Shown piece by piece: positions 769 through 11,440 of a DNA stretch of 12,182 bases. Under the pieces are notes generated by a model, which was given only the letters and a program-made list of their open reading frames with translations, did no database searches and had not been told where the DNA came from. The DNA is taken from NCBI GenBank assembly GCA_033764315.1, contig JANRJA010000060.1:1-12182 (forward strand), read 5' to 3'. Each line of letters begins with the position of its first letter. Positions within the stretch are counted from its first letter, which is position 1. Both the position numbers and the translations under genes were made by a program. This DNA comes from Oculatellaceae cyanobacterium bins.114 (GTDB lineage Bacteria; Cyanobacteriota; Cyanobacteriia; Elainellales; Elainellaceae).

Positions 769-1425
769 TCATAGCCCTAGTTCCTGACGGACTTCAATCA
801 AAGGTTTGTGCCAATTTGCTTCAAAGGGATAGGCAAAAATGGGTTTGCAGACTAGCCCTTGTCGGATTCCCCTAATAACTGAAGCGATCGCTTGAGGAGC
901 CAACATGATATGACCCACCATAAACCAGGGGAGATGAGATAGCACAAACACATTCAACAAATCTCGATATTGCAACAAGACAAATGCAGCTAGCCCAAAT
1001 TCACCTACAGGAGTGCTATTAAACCCTGTCATAACGTGATGGACATCGTGAGATAACGCTAGTCGTTGTTCAACCCAATCGTATTGATTAGAGGTTACAA
1101 ACGCGGCGGGGTCAAATCCCTGACTGAGAAGATGCTTGGCATAAGCTCCACCCAAGCTGTCTTCCGGCAGTTGGGAGAGATAGTCAAGATTAATGTCAAT
1201 CATGGTGTGTGCTAGAGGAGTTGCTTGCTGAGCCAGTCGTGCAGTCACCCAGCGTTGCCAATGACTCTGTTGCCCTGCGGCAATGATGTGCAAAATGCCT
1301 TGAGATGGATTCTCTAGAAAGACACGATATGCCTGACGCAGCTCAGACCAATTCATTCCACTCAAGGGGTTGAGGCGAGTGAACCAGAAATTGTTGATTT
1401 GCGGGATCGAAGACCTGCTGACCAT
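769..1425 (-). CDS. Coq4-family protein (COQ4-like metal-binding protein, putative decarboxylase)
   Basis: Contains LSQLPEDSLGGAYA, the exact COQ4 motif HDxxH-x11-E (HDVHH-VMTGFNSTPVG-E; HDVHH at 1036-1050) and the tail FEANWHKPLIEVRQELGL. ATG at 1425 preferred to 1500: it has GGGAG just upstream, and the longer version overlaps the operator region. Confidence 0.88.
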   Translation of the reverse strand: MVSRSSIPQINNFWFTRLNPLSGMNWSELRQAYRVFLENPSQGILHIIAAGQQSHWQRWVTARLAQQATPLAHTMIDINLDYLSQLPEDSLGGAYAKHLLSQGFDPAAFVTSNQYDWVEQRLALSHDVHHVMTGFNSTPVGEFGLAAFVLLQYRDLLNVFVLSHLPWFMVGHIMLAPQAIASVIRGIRQGLVCKPIFAYPFEANWHKPLIEVRQELGL

Positions 1426-1477
1426 AAAAAATCTCCCATTCAAATTAAGAGCCAAGAACGTAGTACACTGAATTATG

Positions 1478-1542
1478 TATTCAATCAGTAGACTATTCAA
1501 TTAATTGAATATGCCTGTAGTTTATAGTCAACTAATTGAATA
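1478..1542. promoter_or_regulatory. Three 18-bp palindromic boxes, probable PadR/AphA operators in the divergent promoter
   Basis: 1478-1495 TATTCAATCAGTAGACTA; 1494-1511 TATTCAATTAATTGAATA (perfect palindrome); 1525-1542 TAGTCAACTAATTGAATA. Box 1 reverse-complemented matches box 3 at 16/18. The pattern resembles the AphA box TATGCA-N6-TGCATA. Confidence 0.75.
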
Positions 1543-1561
1543 TGTCAAGCAGGAGGGTTCA

Positions 1562-2101
1562 ATGGCGTTATCTCATGCGATCTTGGCAACGCTGGTAGGT
1601 CAAACTGCCAGTGGGTATGATTTACGGAAGCAGTTTGAAGGCTCGGTGGGGTTCTTTTGGCAAGCTAGTTTTCAGCAGATCTATCGAGAACTGGGCAAAT
1701 TAGAAGACCAGGGTTATGTGCGATCGCAAACCGTTCATCAAGAAAATCGCCCTGATAAAAAGCTGTATGAGGTGACAGACACAGGCAAAACCTATCTCGG
1801 CGATTGGATCAGCCAATCTTGTGAGATGGCACCGATTAAAGACGATCTGTTAGTCAAAGTATTTGCGGGTTATCTGGTGCCCAAAGCCGTCATGGTGAAG
1901 GAGTTAGAACACCATCGAACTCAGCATTTAGAACGGCTACAAGTTTACCGCACCTTAGAACAACGATTTTTTTCACCGGCGGAGCACCTGACGCCAGATG
2001 ACCAATTTCGCTATATGACGTTAAGCTATGGCATTCGCTATGAAACAGGTTGGTTAGCCTGGTGTGAAGAGGCGATCGCTGTTTTGGGGGCTACCTCATG
2101 A
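1562..2101 (+). CDS. PadR-family transcriptional regulator (AphA-like, with C-terminal dimerisation domain)
   Basis: MALSHAILATL...SGYDLRKQF...FFWQASFQQIYRELGKLE...RPDKKLYEVTDTG wHTH pattern; C-terminal DDLLVKVF...GIRYETGWLAWCEE. AGGAGG RBS at 1551-1556 before ATG 1562. Confidence 0.93.
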   Translation: MALSHAILATLVGQTASGYDLRKQFEGSVGFFWQASFQQIYRELGKLEDQGYVRSQTVHQENRPDKKLYEVTDTGKTYLGDWISQSCEMAPIKDDLLVKVFAGYLVPKAVMVKELEHHRTQHLERLQVYRTLEQRFFSPAEHLTPDDQFRYMTLSYGIRYETGWLAWCEEAIAVLGATS

Positions 2102-3321
2102 GTCAAGTCGTCATTATTGGAGCTGGACCAGGCGGAGCAACCCTAGCGTTGTTGTTAGCACAACGGGGCATTGCCGTCACGTTGGTTGAGGCATCTCGCA
2201 CCTTTCATCGAGCCTTTCGAGGTGAGGGGTTAATGCCCAGTGGCTTGGATGCGTTGCATCAGATGGGGTTAGAGTCGCTGCTAGACACGATTCCCCATCG
2301 CCCATTGACTGCCTGGGAGTTTTGGATTAACGGGCAATCACCCACTGGGGGAACTGCAAAGCAACCGCTATTTCGGGTCGAAGAACCGCTCGAACCCAAT
2401 GGCACACCGTGCACACTGGTTTCGCAATCGGCTCTGTTAACGGCATTAATTGATCAACTCAGCCATTATCCTCAGGTTGAGTTTGTTCAAGGGGTGGCAG
2501 TTCACGATTTGCTCAAGGCAGATGGACGAATCTCTGGGGTGACGCTAGCGGATGGTCGTGAGATTTATGCATCTCTGGTGATTGCCACTGATGGCCGCAA
2601 TTCTGTTGCCCGACAACGCGCCAAACTAGCTCTACACCACCAATCTAACGCTTTTGATATCCTCTGGTTGCGGTTGGCAGATAGCCCTCACTTTGAGACA
2701 GAGAATGTGTTTTATTCCATTGTTCAAGGGCAACAGGCTTTTGGGTTATTCCGCAGTTCAGAGGGTAATCTGCATGTGGGGTGGGCACTGCGCGATCGCT
2801 CTCAAGATTGGAAACAAATGGATTGGGCTGAAACCCTGGCATCTGCTTCTCCAGAGTGGTTGGCAGATCACTTTCGCACGGTTGCCACGACGATTGATCG
2901 ACCTGTGTTGTTGTCAGTGGTGGTAGGTCGCTGTCCTCAGTGGTGGGTACCAGGATTGTTGCTGTTAGGCGATGCCGCTCACCCCATGTCTCCCATTCGA
3001 GCACAGGGCATCAACATGGCACTGCGGGATAGCATTGTTGCCGCCAATCATCTCGTGCCGTTGTTGCAACAGGGGGCATCGACCGAGGCGATCAACAGAG
3101 TGTTGCCTCAGATTCAAACAGCACGAGAGCCAGAAATTATTCGTGCTCAACAGTTACAGCAGCAGGAAGCGGCTCAAGCCGAATTGTTGGGCAATTATCC
3201 GCTGCTACAATGGGGAGTCAGTCAATTTGCGCCACTCATCCGCTATCCCATTCGCTTCTCCTGGGTCGCTCGACAACGCCAGTTGCGTCAGGGGGTGACA
3301 TCGGTTCAGTTACAGGTTTAG
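2098..3321 (+). CDS. FAD-dependent monooxygenase/oxidoreductase (UbiH/COQ6/FAD_binding_3-like, group A flavoprotein)
   Basis: GxGxxG (VVIIGAGPGG), FRGE, DG motif (IATDGRNS), GD motif (LLLLGDAAHPMSPIRAQGINMALRD). ATGA overlap with the padR stop (2098-2101) implies translational coupling. Confidence 0.92.
   Translation: MSQVVIIGAGPGGATLALLLAQRGIAVTLVEASRTFHRAFRGEGLMPSGLDALHQMGLESLLDTIPHRPLTAWEFWINGQSPTGGTAKQPLFRVEEPLEPNGTPCTLVSQSALLTALIDQLSHYPQVEFVQGVAVHDLLKADGRISGVTLADGREIYASLVIATDGRNSVARQRAKLALHHQSNAFDILWLRLADSPHFETENVFYSIVQGQQAFGLFRSSEGNLHVGWALRDRSQDWKQMDWAETLASASPEWLADHFRTVATTIDRPVLLSVVVGRCPQWWVPGLLLLGDAAHPMSPIRAQGINMALRDSIVAANHLVPLLQQGASTEAINRVLPQIQTAREPEIIRAQQLQQQEAAQAELLGNYPLLQWGVSQFAPLIRYPIRFSWVARQRQLRQGVTSVQLQV
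2334..2368. repeat. Probable 27-bp in-frame small dispersed repeat inserted at a degenerate HIP1-like site
   Basis: GCAATCAC (2334-2341) and GCAACCGC (2361-2368) are each 6/8 to GCGATCGC, 27 bp apart, around the mini-hairpin CCCA-C-TGGG. Encodes QSPTGGTAK. Confidence 0.5.
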
Positions 3322-3436: not shown

Positions 3437-4354
3437 TCAGTTGCTATTCCTTAAAAAAGGATCTCCGTGATCTCGAAACCGAGTTGTTAAAAAGTCAACA
3501 AACAGTCGAATTTTAGTCGAAAGATGACGATTAACCGGATACAACACATAGATCGAAATTTCGGTTGGGTGATAGTCTGGCAAGACAAGCGTGAGTTGTC
3601 CCTGGCGTAAGGCATCGCCAATAATAAAAGTGGGTAGTAATGCAATCCCCAATCCATGTATGGCGGCATCTCGCAACACTTCTCCGTTGTTAGAACACAT
3701 GGCTCCCTGAATGGCGATGTGCTGCTCTCCATCTGGCCCCACAAGCAACCAATGGTTTTCAATGGCTAAGTGACCGTAGTGCAAACACGAGTGATGGCGC
3801 AAATCAGTGGGATGGGTCAATGGTTCCTGGTGTTGCATGTAGGCAGGGGAAGCACACAACACACGGGGTGCAGATACCAGTTTTTGGACGATCAAACTTG
3901 CTGTCTCTGGAGGCTCTGCAATGCGCACGGTGACATCAAAGCCCTCCTCAATGGGGTCAACAAAGCGATCGTCTAAAGTCAGTTGCATCTGCAAATCGGG
4001 ATACTGCATCAAAAAGTCAGCCACTGCTGAGGCTAAATGCAGTGTGCCAAATGACATGGGGGCGTTAACTCGTAAACGTCCTCTAGGTTCTCCATGCAAC
4101 TGAGAGACAGCCTGTTCAGCTTCGGCTAAATCTGCCAAGATCGCCACACACCGTTCATAAAATGCCAAACCACTTTCAGTGGGACTAACCTGTCGGGTAC
4201 TGCGATGTAATAGTTGCACACCTAGGTCATTTTCTAAATTAATCACTAGTTTATTGACTGCCGATCGCGACATTCCCATTTGGCGAGCTGCCGCCGCAAA
4301 CCCACCTGCTGTCACCACCTGTGTAAACGCTCGAATGCACTCAAACTTATCCAT
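3437..4354 (-). CDS. LysR-family transcriptional regulator (CrgA/DmlR-like)
   Basis: N-terminal [38 protein letters not shown]...[15 protein letters not shown]; substrate-binding domain [51 protein letters not shown] at 4354 chosen over 4372. Confidence 0.95.
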
Positions 4355-4462
4355 TCCTGGATTGTATAGCAACTGTTAAGGCAGTTGATACAAAAGGGGA
4401 TACAGGCTTGCGGTGGACTAATTGATCTGAGTGCTTTCCACTTCGGTATTCCGTCTGAACCC

Positions 4463-6411: not shown

Positions 6412-6873
6412 ATGCAAATCCGTTTGTTTCATCCCCAAGACGCTGAGCAAATTGCCCAGCTTTTTCATGACACCATTCGAGAGGTCAACAGCCGTGACTA
6501 CTCTGAGAGCCAAGTTAAAGCTTGGGCACCCGACAATATTCATTTTAGAAATTGGGTAGAAGCCTGCTCTAAGCGATTTACTTATGTGGCAGATGATGCT
6601 GGAGTGATTGCCGGATTTGGCGAATTAGAAGCCAATGGTCATATCGATTGTTTCTACTGCCACAAAGATTATCAGCGTCAGGGAGTGGGCAGTCAAATCT
6701 ATGCAGCTATAGAAGCAAAAGCGATCGCTCTCGGCTTAAAGTATCTGTTTGTTGAAGTCAGCATTACGGCTAAACCGTTCTTTCAACAGATGGGGTTTGC
6801 AGTGGTTAAAGAACAGCAAGAACCTCGTCGGGGTGAGCTGCTGACAAACTTTTTGATGGAAAAGTTTTTATGA
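6412..6873 (+). CDS. GNAT-family N-acetyltransferase (YafP/Acetyltransf_10-like)
   Basis: IAQLFHDTIREVNSRDYSESQVKAWA; acetyl-CoA motif A FYCHKDYQRQGVGSQI; motif B VEVSITAKPFFQQMGF. Confidence 0.92.
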   Translation: MQIRLFHPQDAEQIAQLFHDTIREVNSRDYSESQVKAWAPDNIHFRNWVEACSKRFTYVADDAGVIAGFGELEANGHIDCFYCHKDYQRQGVGSQIYAAIEAKAIALGLKYLFVEVSITAKPFFQQMGFAVVKEQQEPRRGELLTNFLMEKFL

Positions 6874-7536: not shown

Positions 7537-8082
7537 ATGAATGTAGATGAACTTATCCAACGGTATGAAGCTGGAGAGCGTGATTTTAGTGTTGCTAATT
7601 TGACAGAAGCAGAATTAGAAGGGGTTGATTTAAACGGCGCAGTATTGCATGGAGCCACATTGGATGGAGCCAATTTGCGGTATGCAAAGCTGAGGGAAGT
7701 TGACCTGAGTGGAGCTGACTTAAATGGGGCTGATCTGACCCAGGCTGACTTGAGTGGAGCTGATTTGAGCGATGCGATTTTAGATGGTGCTATTTTAGAA
7801 GGCGCGATTCTTGATAGAGCCGTGTTAGGTCAGGCAAACCTGCAATTGGCAAATTTAGTGCAAGCTAATTTGAATCAAGCCGATCTAGCACAGGCTGACA
7901 TGCAAGGTGCCAATTTAGAATCGGCTGATCTGAGTGGGGCAAACCTGGCGATCGCTGACCTCCATCAAGCTAATCTCAATCAGGCAGCATTAGAAGGAGC
8001 CAATTTGGGTGGAGCTAATTTGGAAGATGCTAATTTAGAAGGCACTTTGTTAGAGGGGGGAGATAGTCATCTGGCAACTTAA
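7537..8082 (+). CDS. Pentapeptide repeat protein
   Basis: Cyanobacterial-type N-cap MNVDELIQRYEAGERDF followed by about 30 A(D/N)Lxx repeats. Confidence 0.96.
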   Translation: MNVDELIQRYEAGERDFSVANLTEAELEGVDLNGAVLHGATLDGANLRYAKLREVDLSGADLNGADLTQADLSGADLSDAILDGAILEGAILDRAVLGQANLQLANLVQANLNQADLAQADMQGANLESADLSGANLAIADLHQANLNQAALEGANLGGANLEDANLEGTLLEGGDSHLAT

Positions 8083-9148: not shown

Positions 9149-11440
9149 CTAGCTCAAATCGGTTTTAATGGATTGAGCAACGCAACTATTGTGATTTTCA
9201 ACATTATAGTTTTTAGCATTTCTGACAGCAGTAATCCGACTAGAGGCATTACGGCTGAACGCTTGCTTAAACTCCTCAACATTACATTGGCTAGGATTAG
9301 GCGTCTGTTGCTCAATAAACTCCTTAGATGTGGTAGCCAGTTCCCAGCCAAGCGGGAGTTTGATTTGCTTCGCTTGATTGACCTTCTGTAGCATCAAAGT
9401 TCTAAAATTAAGCTTAAAGGGGTCAGTGATACCGTCGTTGAGAGTATAAGTTGACAACTCAATAGCACTAGAACTGCGGGCTCCACGAGCACTAAACAAA
9501 ACGCGGATGGGCGACAAAATCTCATTTAGCCCTGAAGACTTTAACGGTTGAATAGAACCGTCTCCTGGCTGATCAACAATGGCTAGATAAATGAGCTTGA
9601 AGGTTTTGCCGTTTCCTTCTATTTTCTGTAAAGTTCGACCAATATCGATAGATGTGGGGATGCCTGAATTATCAAAATAGCCCCCGTCTGCTAATCGAGA
9701 TTTGCTGCCATCGTTGCTGTGTTTATACCACCCCACTGGCGTTACGAACGGAAATCTGGCACTTAGTCCTGCTGCTGTACTCAGCCTTAAATCTAGATTA
9801 CTTTCGTCCAGGGCGATGTTCTCTCCGGTTGGCAACTCAATTTTAAAGGGACTAATGACTAGGCGTTTACCGCTTTCAACCACCGTGGTATTGAGCACTA
9901 AGGCAGGGGCAATGCCGTTGGGTTGCCAATGTTGATAAAAAGATCGCTTGAAGGGGTTTTCACGATTAGTATTGGGCAGATTGTTCCAGGCATTTTCAAA
10001 AGCAACTTCTAGTCCACTGGCTCTATCCCAATCATAGATAGAGAATGGAATAAATCTTTGAACTAAGTCAGGAAATAAGCCAAATGTGAGTAAAGGAGAG
10101 AGCAGATCTTGCTCAAAAATCTGACTTGCTCTTCTACTCAAAATCTGGTTATTACCATCACTTTCTTTAATTAAACTTGCGAAGGTCGATGCCCCAAGAC
10201 TGCCGCCAGAAACACCACTGATTGCAAAAATATGTTGAGGAAAGCTCGGAAAATATTCAGTTAATTTGGCAAACGCTGTTGCTGCATGGTAAGCCGCAAA
10301 AATCCCACCACCTTGCGCTGAGGCAATATAGACAGGATAGGGTTTACCTGAATATTGATCTCGGTCGGGTCGGCTTGCTAGCCATTGCTTAAAACTATTT
10401 TCTAAAGAGAGAATTGGGGGATTTTGCGAATTTATACTTTGTCGGAATTGATGGTTATCGTTGAAGTTAAAGACACTTGAAAGAATAACTAGACCAATCA
10501 AGATTGTCAGGGCTGGAATTCTATTGCGTAGTGCCCAAGTATAAATAGTTGAAAAAACAACTACAAGAATCGTAAATGAAACAGCGACTACACCGATCGC
10601 TCCCACCAGGTTGGGGATGCCAGTAGGAGGTAAAATCAAAACAAAGATGATAGATGTTACTAGTGAAATAATGAACCAACGGATAATGGTTTTGTCTAAT
10701 GTTGGATCATAGTCTGGATCTAACTTCTGTTTGATATGCCACGAATAAAGGATGGCATTTAGTAATGCGGAAAAAAGAAGAATGGTGATGATTCCCAAAG
10801 AAAATTTTGAGTTTGTGGCAGCTGCAACCAGAGGCAACGAAAAGGCACTAAAGACAATGTAAGCAGAATTGGCGAGTCCAATTTCAACCTTGGGGTCAAA
10901 TAAACCTGTCCCTTGAGATTTAGAGCCTAGAAATAATTGATTAAATAAAACAGTACGGGTAATAAATAGGAGTAAGATCAAACCCCCAACAATTAAACTT
11001 GAAGTCATCCAAGTCATTAAGAATGCTTTAACGGCTACGTTGATAGATTGCTTCCAGGCTTCAAAAATACCGAAACTCAATCCAAGCATTGGGGCAATTC
11101 CTAGACTTCTTGGTGCCCAAGTGGCTAAGAAATTTTGACACTTATTTTTTGGGCAATTGTTATATTCTTCTAGGACTAGAAAACGAGAAGTATACCAAAT
11201 AAAAATGGTTAATATAGCAACAAAAACCGTTGTTACGCACGCCTGATAGAGGTTGTTGTCTAAGGCAATTGAGCGATAAACCTCGATGGCTTGCTCAACC
11301 TGACTAAAAACGAGCCATGCAGCCAAGGCGATCGCTGTCTGGACTCTTAAATAAATCAGACATTGAAAGAGTGGCTTGATCCATTGCTCTATAAAATGAG
11401 CGGTTCTCTGAATGAGCTTGTCAAAATTGGATGCTTGCAT
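9149..11440 (-). CDS. Membrane-anchored patatin-like phospholipase
   Basis: The N-terminal ~325 aa have many hydrophobic TM-like segments. The C-terminal domain has an oxyanion loop (ASAQGGGIFAA), nucleophile elbow GxSxG (ISGVSGGSLG), LNTT, SARFP and catalytic Asp motif DGGYFDNSG. Confidence 0.88.
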   Translation of the reverse strand: MQASNFDKLIQRTAHFIEQWIKPLFQCLIYLRVQTAIALAAWLVFSQVEQAIEVYRSIALDNNLYQACVTTVFVAILTIFIWYTSRFLVLEEYNNCPKNKCQNFLATWAPRSLGIAPMLGLSFGIFEAWKQSINVAVKAFLMTWMTSSLIVGGLILLLFITRTVLFNQLFLGSKSQGTGLFDPKVEIGLANSAYIVFSAFSLPLVAAATNSKFSLGIITILLFSALLNAILYSWHIKQKLDPDYDPTLDKTIIRWFIISLVTSIIFVLILPPTGIPNLVGAIGVVAVSFTILVVVFSTIYTWALRNRIPALTILIGLVILSSVFNFNDNHQFRQSINSQNPPILSLENSFKQWLASRPDRDQYSGKPYPVYIASAQGGGIFAAYHAATAFAKLTEYFPSFPQHIFAISGVSGGSLGASTFASLIKESDGNNQILSRRASQIFEQDLLSPLLTFGLFPDLVQRFIPFSIYDWDRASGLEVAFENAWNNLPNTNRENPFKRSFYQHWQPNGIAPALVLNTTVVESGKRLVISPFKIELPTGENIALDESNLDLRLSTAAGLSARFPFVTPVGWYKHSNDGSKSRLADGGYFDNSGIPTSIDIGRTLQKIEGNGKTFKLIYLAIVDQPGDGSIQPLKSSGLNEILSPIRVLFSARGARSSSAIELSTYTLNDGITDPFKLNFRTLMLQKVNQAKQIKLPLGWELATTSKEFIEQQTPNPSQCNVEEFKQAFSRNASSRITAVRNAKNYNVENHNSCVAQSIKTDLS

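Follow-up and report, generated by a model that had tools for sequence, protein, structure and literature searches.

A PadR-family regulator gene paired divergently with a Coq4-like gene across a predicted operator array in cyanobacteria

In the PadR-PadC systems of Bacillus and Lactobacillus, a PadR repressor is encoded beside the gene of a cofactor-light decarboxylase, the substrate of the enzyme releases repression, and the operators are palindromes with an ATG...CAT-type core and a span of 16 bp. Ligand-released repression is the usual mode of action in the PadR family. Here we describe a cyanobacterial locus in which a gene for a PadR-family regulator stands divergent from a gene of the COQ4 family. 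It was found on contig JANRJA010000060.1 of Oculatellaceae cyanobacterium bins.114 (GenBank assembly GCA_033764315.1, 6.6 Mb), hereafter the source genome. The contig, 12,182 bases long, was analysed entire and is termed the window; its region 769-3321 holds three genes, a coq4-like gene, padR and a gene for a class A flavin adenine dinucleotide (FAD)-dependent monooxygenase (FMO). The locus resembles PadR-PadC in that a PadR-family gene adjoins a gene for a putative decarboxylase, with palindromic operators that are here predicted. It differs in that the enzyme is Coq4-like, the operators have the form TATKCA-N6-TGMATA and stand in arrays of two to five, and the PadR carries a Vir_act_alpha_C domain. 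A PadR switch with a divergent enzyme gene is of a known kind; a published description of the PadR-Coq4 pairing was not found in the literature searched, supplements not covered.

Eukaryotic COQ4 belongs to the same Pfam family (PF05019) as the Coq4-like protein of the window and carries the same HDxxH-x11-E motif. Parts of PMC7615680 report that COQ4 decarboxylates C1 in a Zn-dependent reaction, that mutants of its metal site are inactive, and that it acts consecutively at C1 with COQ6, a class A flavin monooxygenase, the two enhancing each other in vitro. In parts of a preprint (bioRxiv 10.1101/2023.11.13.566839), COQ4 is described as a C1 oxidative decarboxylase that rescues E. coli ubiD and ubiH defects. 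This catalytic role was assigned only in 2023-24, and the mechanism and in-vitro substrates are still debated. Unlike COQ4 and COQ6, the coq4-like gene of the window is an accessory gene of patchy distribution with a padR partner, and the adjoining FMO lies outside the UbiH/COQ6 family. No characterised function was found in the literature searched for any bacterial Coq4 homologue, Alr8543 of Nostoc PCC 7120 included, in agreement with an earlier note on this DNA, made from its letters alone. The features of the locus are as follows.

769..1425, minus strand: gene for a Coq4-family metalloprotein of 218 aa; likely start ATG 1425, stop TGA 771-769
1426..1561, unstranded: divergent control region from the coq4-like start codon to the padR start codon, 136 bp, read from sequence
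1478..1495, unstranded: operator-like palindrome 1, two mismatches to TATKCA-N6-TGMATA; shares 2 nt with site 2
1494..1511, unstranded: operator-like palindrome 2, perfect, TATTCAATTAATTGAATA
1525..1542, unstranded: operator-like palindrome 3, one mismatch to TATKCA-N6-TGMATA
1562..2101, plus strand: padR, encoding a two-domain PadR-family regulator of 179 aa; start ATG 1562, stop TGA 2099-2101
2098..2101, plus strand: ATGA in which the padR stop (TGA 2099-2101) and the FMO start (ATG 2098-2100) overlap
2098..3321, plus strand: class A FAD-dependent monooxygenase (FMO), 407 aa

The locus is probably a one-component PadR switch, through which a ligand gates the response to lipophilic compounds of aromatic or quinone-like type. 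In such a mechanism PadR would bind the predicted array of three 18-bp palindromes in the 136-bp divergent region and would control the coq4-like gene in one direction and its own transcript in the opposite direction, and a small ligand would release repression, to judge from the PadR family. The Coq4-like protein has retained both the fold and the metal site of COQ4; by analogy with COQ4, its likeliest chemistry would be the metal-dependent decarboxylation of a lipophilic hydroxy-aromatic acid. An oxygenase partner, which would be an af470-like ABM monooxygenase elsewhere and possibly the FMO here, would then oxidise the product. Together they would form a response induced by lipophilic compounds of phenolic or quinone-like type, as opposed to housekeeping plastoquinone synthesis.

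Conservation of the pair was assessed in a scan of one genome per species, which returned 176 Coq4 relatives. The best 80 loci were kept, comprising 55 at orthologue level (47-65% identity, some partial) and 25 distant paralogues (31-39%), and PadR genes were counted from Pfam scans of the neighbours together with tblastn using the window PadR. Of the 55 orthologous loci, 46 hold a PadR orthologue; it is upstream and divergent in 45 and directly adjacent in 42, where 129-322 nt separate the 5' ends of the two matches, and in the other three divergent loci an af470-like gene intervenes. The 46th locus, L059, is a truncated and rearranged remnant. Nine loci lack PadR, four of which (L010, L032, L057 and L060) are too short upstream to judge. 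A PadR of the window type was found at none of the 25 loci of distant Coq4 paralogues. The PadR of the window shares 47-65% identity (median 56%) with all 43 PadRs encoded beside Coq4 orthologues, which is the identity range of the Coq4 orthologues themselves, and the pair has therefore travelled together. From these comparisons, the conserved unit is padR and the coq4-like gene with the predicted operator array, without the FMO. Control of the coq4-like gene by PadR, proposed in the earlier note, thus gains strong backing from conservation, both through the divergent PadR at 45 of 55 loci and through the conserved candidate operators. An orthologue of the window Coq4-like protein was not found in the same-genus genome, whose best match is a paralogue of 37% identity, or in the four same-family genomes searched. 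This patchy distribution of the pair fits an accessory function.

The PadR protein matches PF03551, the winged-helix domain, at 53.7 bits (cut-off 27) and, in its C-terminal part, PF10400 (Vir_act_alpha_C) at 96.4 bits (cut-off 22.4). Its predicted operators were first found de novo as palindromes in homologous intergenic regions, with the shared 18-bp form TATKCA-N6-TGMATA, and were counted with up to one mismatch in 41 regions, namely those of 40 other loci and of the window. The motif occurs in 41 of 41 regions, with at least two sites in 38 of them. In total, 100 sites lie in 14.7 kb of intergenic DNA and two in the remaining 418 kb of locus sequence, corresponding to densities of 6.8 and 0.005 per kb and to a more than 1000-fold enrichment. 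The three matching palindromes that the earlier note placed between the divergent genes are thus confirmed at 1478-1495, 1494-1511 and 1525-1542 and, by this comparison of sequences, are not due to chance. Registers of 16 nt, with overlapping sites, and of 29-37 nt recur in the arrays of orthologous loci, and the window spacing of 16 and 31 nt fits them. The variable half-site positions differ by site and by lineage, so that TATGCA..TGCATA and TATTCA..TGAATA occur as well as mixtures of the two. Hexamers that resemble a promoter of the coq4-like gene lie beside or across the predicted operators, with four matches in the region against 3.9 expected by chance; palindrome 3 sits between the minus-strand hexamers TTGACA (1548-1543) and TAAACT (1524-1519), a consensus match only. 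On the other strand, GGAGG at 1552-1556 stands six bases ahead of the padR start codon, ATG 1562.

The Coq4-like open reading frame (ORF), scanned as 769-1500 on the minus strand, matches the Pfam Coq4 family PF05019 at 55.8 bits (cut-off 22.9), with profile positions 72-217 of 221 covered. Its start is likely ATG 1425, because an NPL motif that homologues conserve precedes the shorter start called in the database. The metal motif is intact in the translation as HDVHH-x11-E and the spacer to padR measures 136 bp, and the earlier observation of an intact COQ4 site in a gene divergent from padR therefore stands. The residues H126, D127, H130 and E142 are invariant in all 26 aligned members of the subfamily. 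The subfamily is populous in cyanobacteria, where 191 clusters match at E <= 1e-5, the 120 listed among them all being at least 50% identical. An AlphaFold2 model of the protein (predicted local distance difference test, pLDDT, 89.6; predicted template modelling score, pTM, 0.83) displays an all-helical Coq4 fold. Structural similarity search of the model with Foldseek retrieved PDB entries 3MSQ and 6E12, with template modelling (TM) scores of 0.73-0.77 and E values of 6e-9 to 2e-7, beyond which the next match has an E value above 1. The same two entries are the only PDB sequence matches (E 9e-14 and 8e-11). They represent the cyanobacterial proteins Npun02000094 (3MSQ) and Alr8543 of Nostoc PCC 7120 (6E12), which have the same fold as the window protein and are only 23-24% identical to it, and which therefore belong to a different paralogue clade. 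According to parts of the preprint cited above (bioRxiv 10.1101/2023.11.13.566839), the Alr8543 structure has a two-metal site beside a hydrophobic tunnel, within which a fatty acid is bound in the crystal. A predicted complex of the FMO with the Coq4-like protein scored 0.29 against a mark of 0.32, in a run without controls.

All three Coq4 paralogues of the source genome adjoin a private divergent one-component regulator, a PadR in one case and a TetR in two. One large cyanobacterial Coq4 clade is tied to PadR with a defined operator motif, and its sister paralogues are tied to TetR. This arrangement provides an experimental handle on bacterial Coq4 function, as a compound that releases the repressor would point to the class of substrate. 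The TetR genes beside the two other paralogues (G000:C162, in locus L004 3427-4896, and G000:C168, in locus L005 4506-7692) encode TetR_N plus TetR_C_15 proteins, and one of the two units continues with an MFS transporter gene. At one locus elsewhere (L009 1635-6612, also L143), a TetR-Coq4-MFS unit and a PadR-Coq4 unit stand side by side, and the tetR and padR ORFs are convergent there, with a 4-nt overlap of their 3' ends. Among genomic matches, that in L006 is closest to the window Coq4-like gene (65% identity), and padR and an af470-like gene adjoin it; this contig is binned as Rhizobium, its gene content looks cyanobacterial, and it may be mis-binned. In L007 2987-6627, from a Desmonostoc metagenome-assembled genome, a Coq4 orthologue without padR adjoins genes for a chorismate-binding enzyme and a UbiA-family prenyltransferase, the only quinone-pathway-like Coq4 context seen. 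A chorismate-binding gene also adjoins a distant Coq4 paralogue in L083.

The FMO matches FAD_binding_3 (PF01494) at 121.9 bits (cut-off 22), and its translation contains IGAGPGG, ATDGRNS and LLGDAAHPMSPIRAQGIN, which we take to be the class A GxGxxG, DG and GD fingerprints. The earlier description of padR as ATGA-coupled to a group A flavin monooxygenase is borne out by this match and by the overlap of TGA 2099-2101 with ATG 2098-2100. The label "UbiH/COQ6-like" given to it there holds in the generic class A sense and fails at the level of the family. Against TIGR01988 (UbiH/UbiF/VisC/COQ6; cut-off 224.65) the FMO reaches 79.1 bits, and two scans gave it 57 and 41.9 bits on PRK07364 (cut-off 487), a model which, on our own reading, we equate with PlqH and use as its stand-in. 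With PlqH (Slr1300) and UbiH it shares the class A FAD monooxygenase fold, whereas its profile family differs. The best NCBIfam models are the unnamed PRK06185 subfamilies (PRK06185.1-3), at 197.6 bits with a cut-off of 500, and the best relative of solved structure is PDB 8UIU (90 bits). Orthologues of the FMO form clusters 65-81% identical and were found in 35 of 401 sampled cyanobacterial genomes, the source genome included. At the 29 best FMO-orthologue loci, neither padR nor coq4 was found within 1.5 kb. Among the fetched flanks of the 55 orthologous Coq4 loci, an FMO relative is present in one, L011, where it is 54% identical, lies about 1 kb beyond padR and is convergent with it and uncoupled, with two small ORFs between. 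The same-genus genome keeps the FMO (81% protein identity) and a convergent LysR gene (82%), and neither padR nor coq4 was found upstream of the FMO there. In that genome the FMO likewise starts with ATGAGT; in the window it is the TGA within this ATGAGT that terminates the padR frame, and the FMO would therefore have come under the padR transcription unit in the source lineage only. Given this overlap of stop and start codon, it is very probable that the FMO shares a transcript with padR and is under the same switch. To judge from these loci, it is a local recruit, a lineage-specific addition to the padR transcription unit. Among the neighbours of FMO orthologues, for which 37 flanking ORFs from 19 of the 29 loci were scanned, are GntR, glyoxalase and Uma2 genes.

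Where co-directional neighbours of the Coq4 orthologues are present, they encode redox or stress-type enzymes. They include an af470-like ABM monooxygenase (five loci), a short-chain dehydrogenase/reductase (four loci) and, in one locus each, Flavodoxin_2 plus an Mpo1-like protein, DUF1993, a Cass2/GyrI-like protein, a ChrR-type cupin and DJ-1/PfpI. The commonest divergent partner of the window PadR clade, with or without Coq4, is the af470-like monooxygenase (at least 13 loci). It stands opposite padR, without Coq4, in all four same-family genomes reached via DNA similarity to padR, and in the 401-genome sample, of which the 29 best PadR loci were taken, it is the partner in eight clear cases and one weak one, while a Coq4 partner occurs once (L143). 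The recurrent oxygenase of this PadR clade is consequently of a different, cofactor-independent type, which corrects the tempting reading of the locus as a COQ4 + UbiH module. Parts of PMC7020470 describe af470 as an ABM-superfamily monooxygenase of fumagillin synthesis. Proteins of the af470/Fma-ABM-like kind (PF13826) take the place of the oxygenase, a role that may fall to the FMO in the window, and they are unrelated to the FMO in fold and family and absent from the window. The only af470-like match of the source genome is weak (35 bits), lies elsewhere and is not beside a PadR. HlyD efflux adaptors are the partner in all six loci scanned of PadR relatives at 46-50% identity, and MAPEG genes lie near the padR/af470-like pair in the two loci where that ORF was scanned. 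Together with the divergent regulators of all three Coq4 paralogues, these neighbours lend the locus an accessory or detoxification character.

The af470-like genes opposite padR in three same-family genomes (L130 915-1205, L131 1054-1440 and L132 1973-2389) are short, encoding 96-138 aa with a partial profile match; one of the three has an adjoining IS1 transposase fragment, and these genes may be decaying copies. Directly downstream of padR, and on the same strand, a protein of 167-181 aa is encoded in ten loci (L011 4612-5115, L145-L149, L152, L154, L157 and L159). This protein is absent from the window. Between genera its copies share 80-100% identity, a much stronger conservation than that of PadR. 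In the seven loci scanned it matched no Pfam family above cut-off, and one weak sub-threshold match to DNA_processg_A was obtained.

With an FMO relative in the flanks of one of 55 Coq4 loci, and there convergent with padR, and with padR and coq4 at none of the 29 FMO loci, the co-location test set beforehand went against a recurring padR/coq4/FMO set. A dedicated three-gene system, in which PadR would govern a Coq4-like decarboxylase and a UbiH/COQ6-like hydroxylase acting on aromatic acids and mirroring COQ4/COQ6, is accordingly rather unlikely. The ATGA overlap and the operators would place both enzyme genes under one PadR-controlled region, and L011 also has an FMO, 54% identical and about 1 kb past padR; yet the same-genus genome has the FMO-LysR arrangement without the pair, its best Coq4 being 37% identical, and the FMO falls under the UbiH/COQ6 and PlqH cut-offs. 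The precedent of COQ4 and COQ6, consecutive at C1 and mutually enhancing in vitro (parts of PMC7615680), speaks for such a system. So does the monooxygenase of another family, af470-like, that is co-directional in five other Coq4 loci; the source genome lacks a close af470-like orthologue, and the FMO could therefore substitute for it. A broader proposal, improbable as it stands, is that the Coq4 homologues of bacteria are enzymes induced to decarboxylate lipophilic hydroxy-aromatic acids and work with an interchangeable oxygenase, af470-like in most lineages and the FMO here, together forming a PadR-gated two-step decarboxylation-hydroxylation module. If true, Coq4 with its interchangeable oxygenase would be a prokaryotic counterpart, and possibly a forerunner, of the COQ4-COQ6 step of coenzyme Q synthesis, and the PadR ligand would name the substrate of the module. 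A different view, which we hold unlikely, is that the Coq4-like protein is non-catalytic and binds or chaperones a lipid or isoprenoid, its level being tuned by PadR under membrane stress, with the FMO an unrelated passenger. COQ4 was itself long thought to act as a lipid or isoprenoid binder or chaperone. The fatty acid in the hydrophobic tunnel of crystalline 6E12, the coq4-like genes that stand alone, without an enzyme partner, in the largest group of loci, and the own, different neighbours of FMO orthologues elsewhere agree with this view. However, the four metal ligands are invariant across the subfamily, the same residues are required for the decarboxylase activity of COQ4 (parts of PMC7615680), and redox enzymes recur as co-directional neighbours.

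The earlier note also offered an alternative quinone head-group route. On this view the pair would stand in for UbiD/UbiX and PlqH, as another or a reserve way of making the head group of plastoquinone or a different prenylquinone. Parts of PMC12998194 state that cyanobacterial plastoquinone is made via UbiD/X-type and PlqH enzymes and that PlqH (Slr1300), the shown plastoquinone C1 hydroxylase, is nearly universal in cyanobacteria, some orders being without a convincing PlqH. These orders speak for such a route, COQ4 rescues E. coli ubiD and ubiH defects (parts of bioRxiv 10.1101/2023.11.13.566839), and in L007 the coq4-like gene lies beside the chorismate-binding and UbiA-family prenyltransferase genes, with padR replaced. 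The source genome nevertheless has a full-scoring PlqH candidate, C11, on another contig (621.6 bits on PRK07364, cut-off 487; 419.9 bits on TIGR01988) and UbiD at 250.7 bits, and with these candidates the canonical plastoquinone route is therefore complete without the padR/coq4-like locus. Because that route is complete, because the Coq4-like orthologue is patchily distributed, being found in neither the same-genus genome nor the four same-family genomes searched, and because a repressor-type switch is unusual for an essential cofactor pathway, the alternative route is very unlikely.

Several points also weigh against the preferred reading of a ligand-gated PadR switch. Some PadR proteins that carry a Vir_act_alpha_C domain, such as AphA, are activators. 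Five Coq4 loci (L007, L016, L036, L052, which has a TetR instead, and L055) are without PadR despite sufficient upstream DNA. The operator motif was counted in the very regions that had served to derive it, the rest-of-locus sequence alone being an independent control. In the Nodosilinea-type loci, the largest group, the coq4-like gene has no co-directional follower; with partners heterogeneous and the largest group alone, the detoxification theme hence rests on a minority of loci. The FMO as a possible second effector, cooperating with the Coq4-like protein, has one genome and one loose co-location (L011) behind it, and the usual partner of FMO orthologues elsewhere is an alpha/beta hydrolase, whose gene adjoins the FMO in 12 of the 19 loci scanned, sometimes with a 4-nt overlap. 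Repression, ligand, co-transcription, substrate and the cooperation of the Coq4-like protein with the FMO are all things that we infer. Taken together, the interpretation given in the earlier note is partly supported.

Outside the three genes, the window encodes the following features.

158-472: GLTT-repeat ORF
3437-4372, minus strand: LysR-family regulator, convergent with the FMO; the best NCBIfam match is YafC, under the cut-off of that model
6412-6873: GNAT acetyltransferase
7537-8082: pentapeptide-repeat protein, with a score that exceeds the cut-off of the Alr5209-family model
9149-11440: 763-aa protein with a patatin-like phospholipase domain

A 70-aa ORF at 560-772 on the minus strand, ATGA-coupled to the coq4-like stop and without a Pfam or NCBIfam match, was considered and rejected as a gene; it is probably an artefact, because a dispersed repeat of about 105 bp covers its 5' part. 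This repeat lies at 657-767, directly downstream of the coq4-like stop, and includes a GC-rich hairpin, GGGCATTTCGCGAAACGCCC; its folding is no better than that of shuffled sequence (z = -1.1). Copies at 90-97% identity are present on at least six other contigs of the source genome and at six further places in the same-genus genome.

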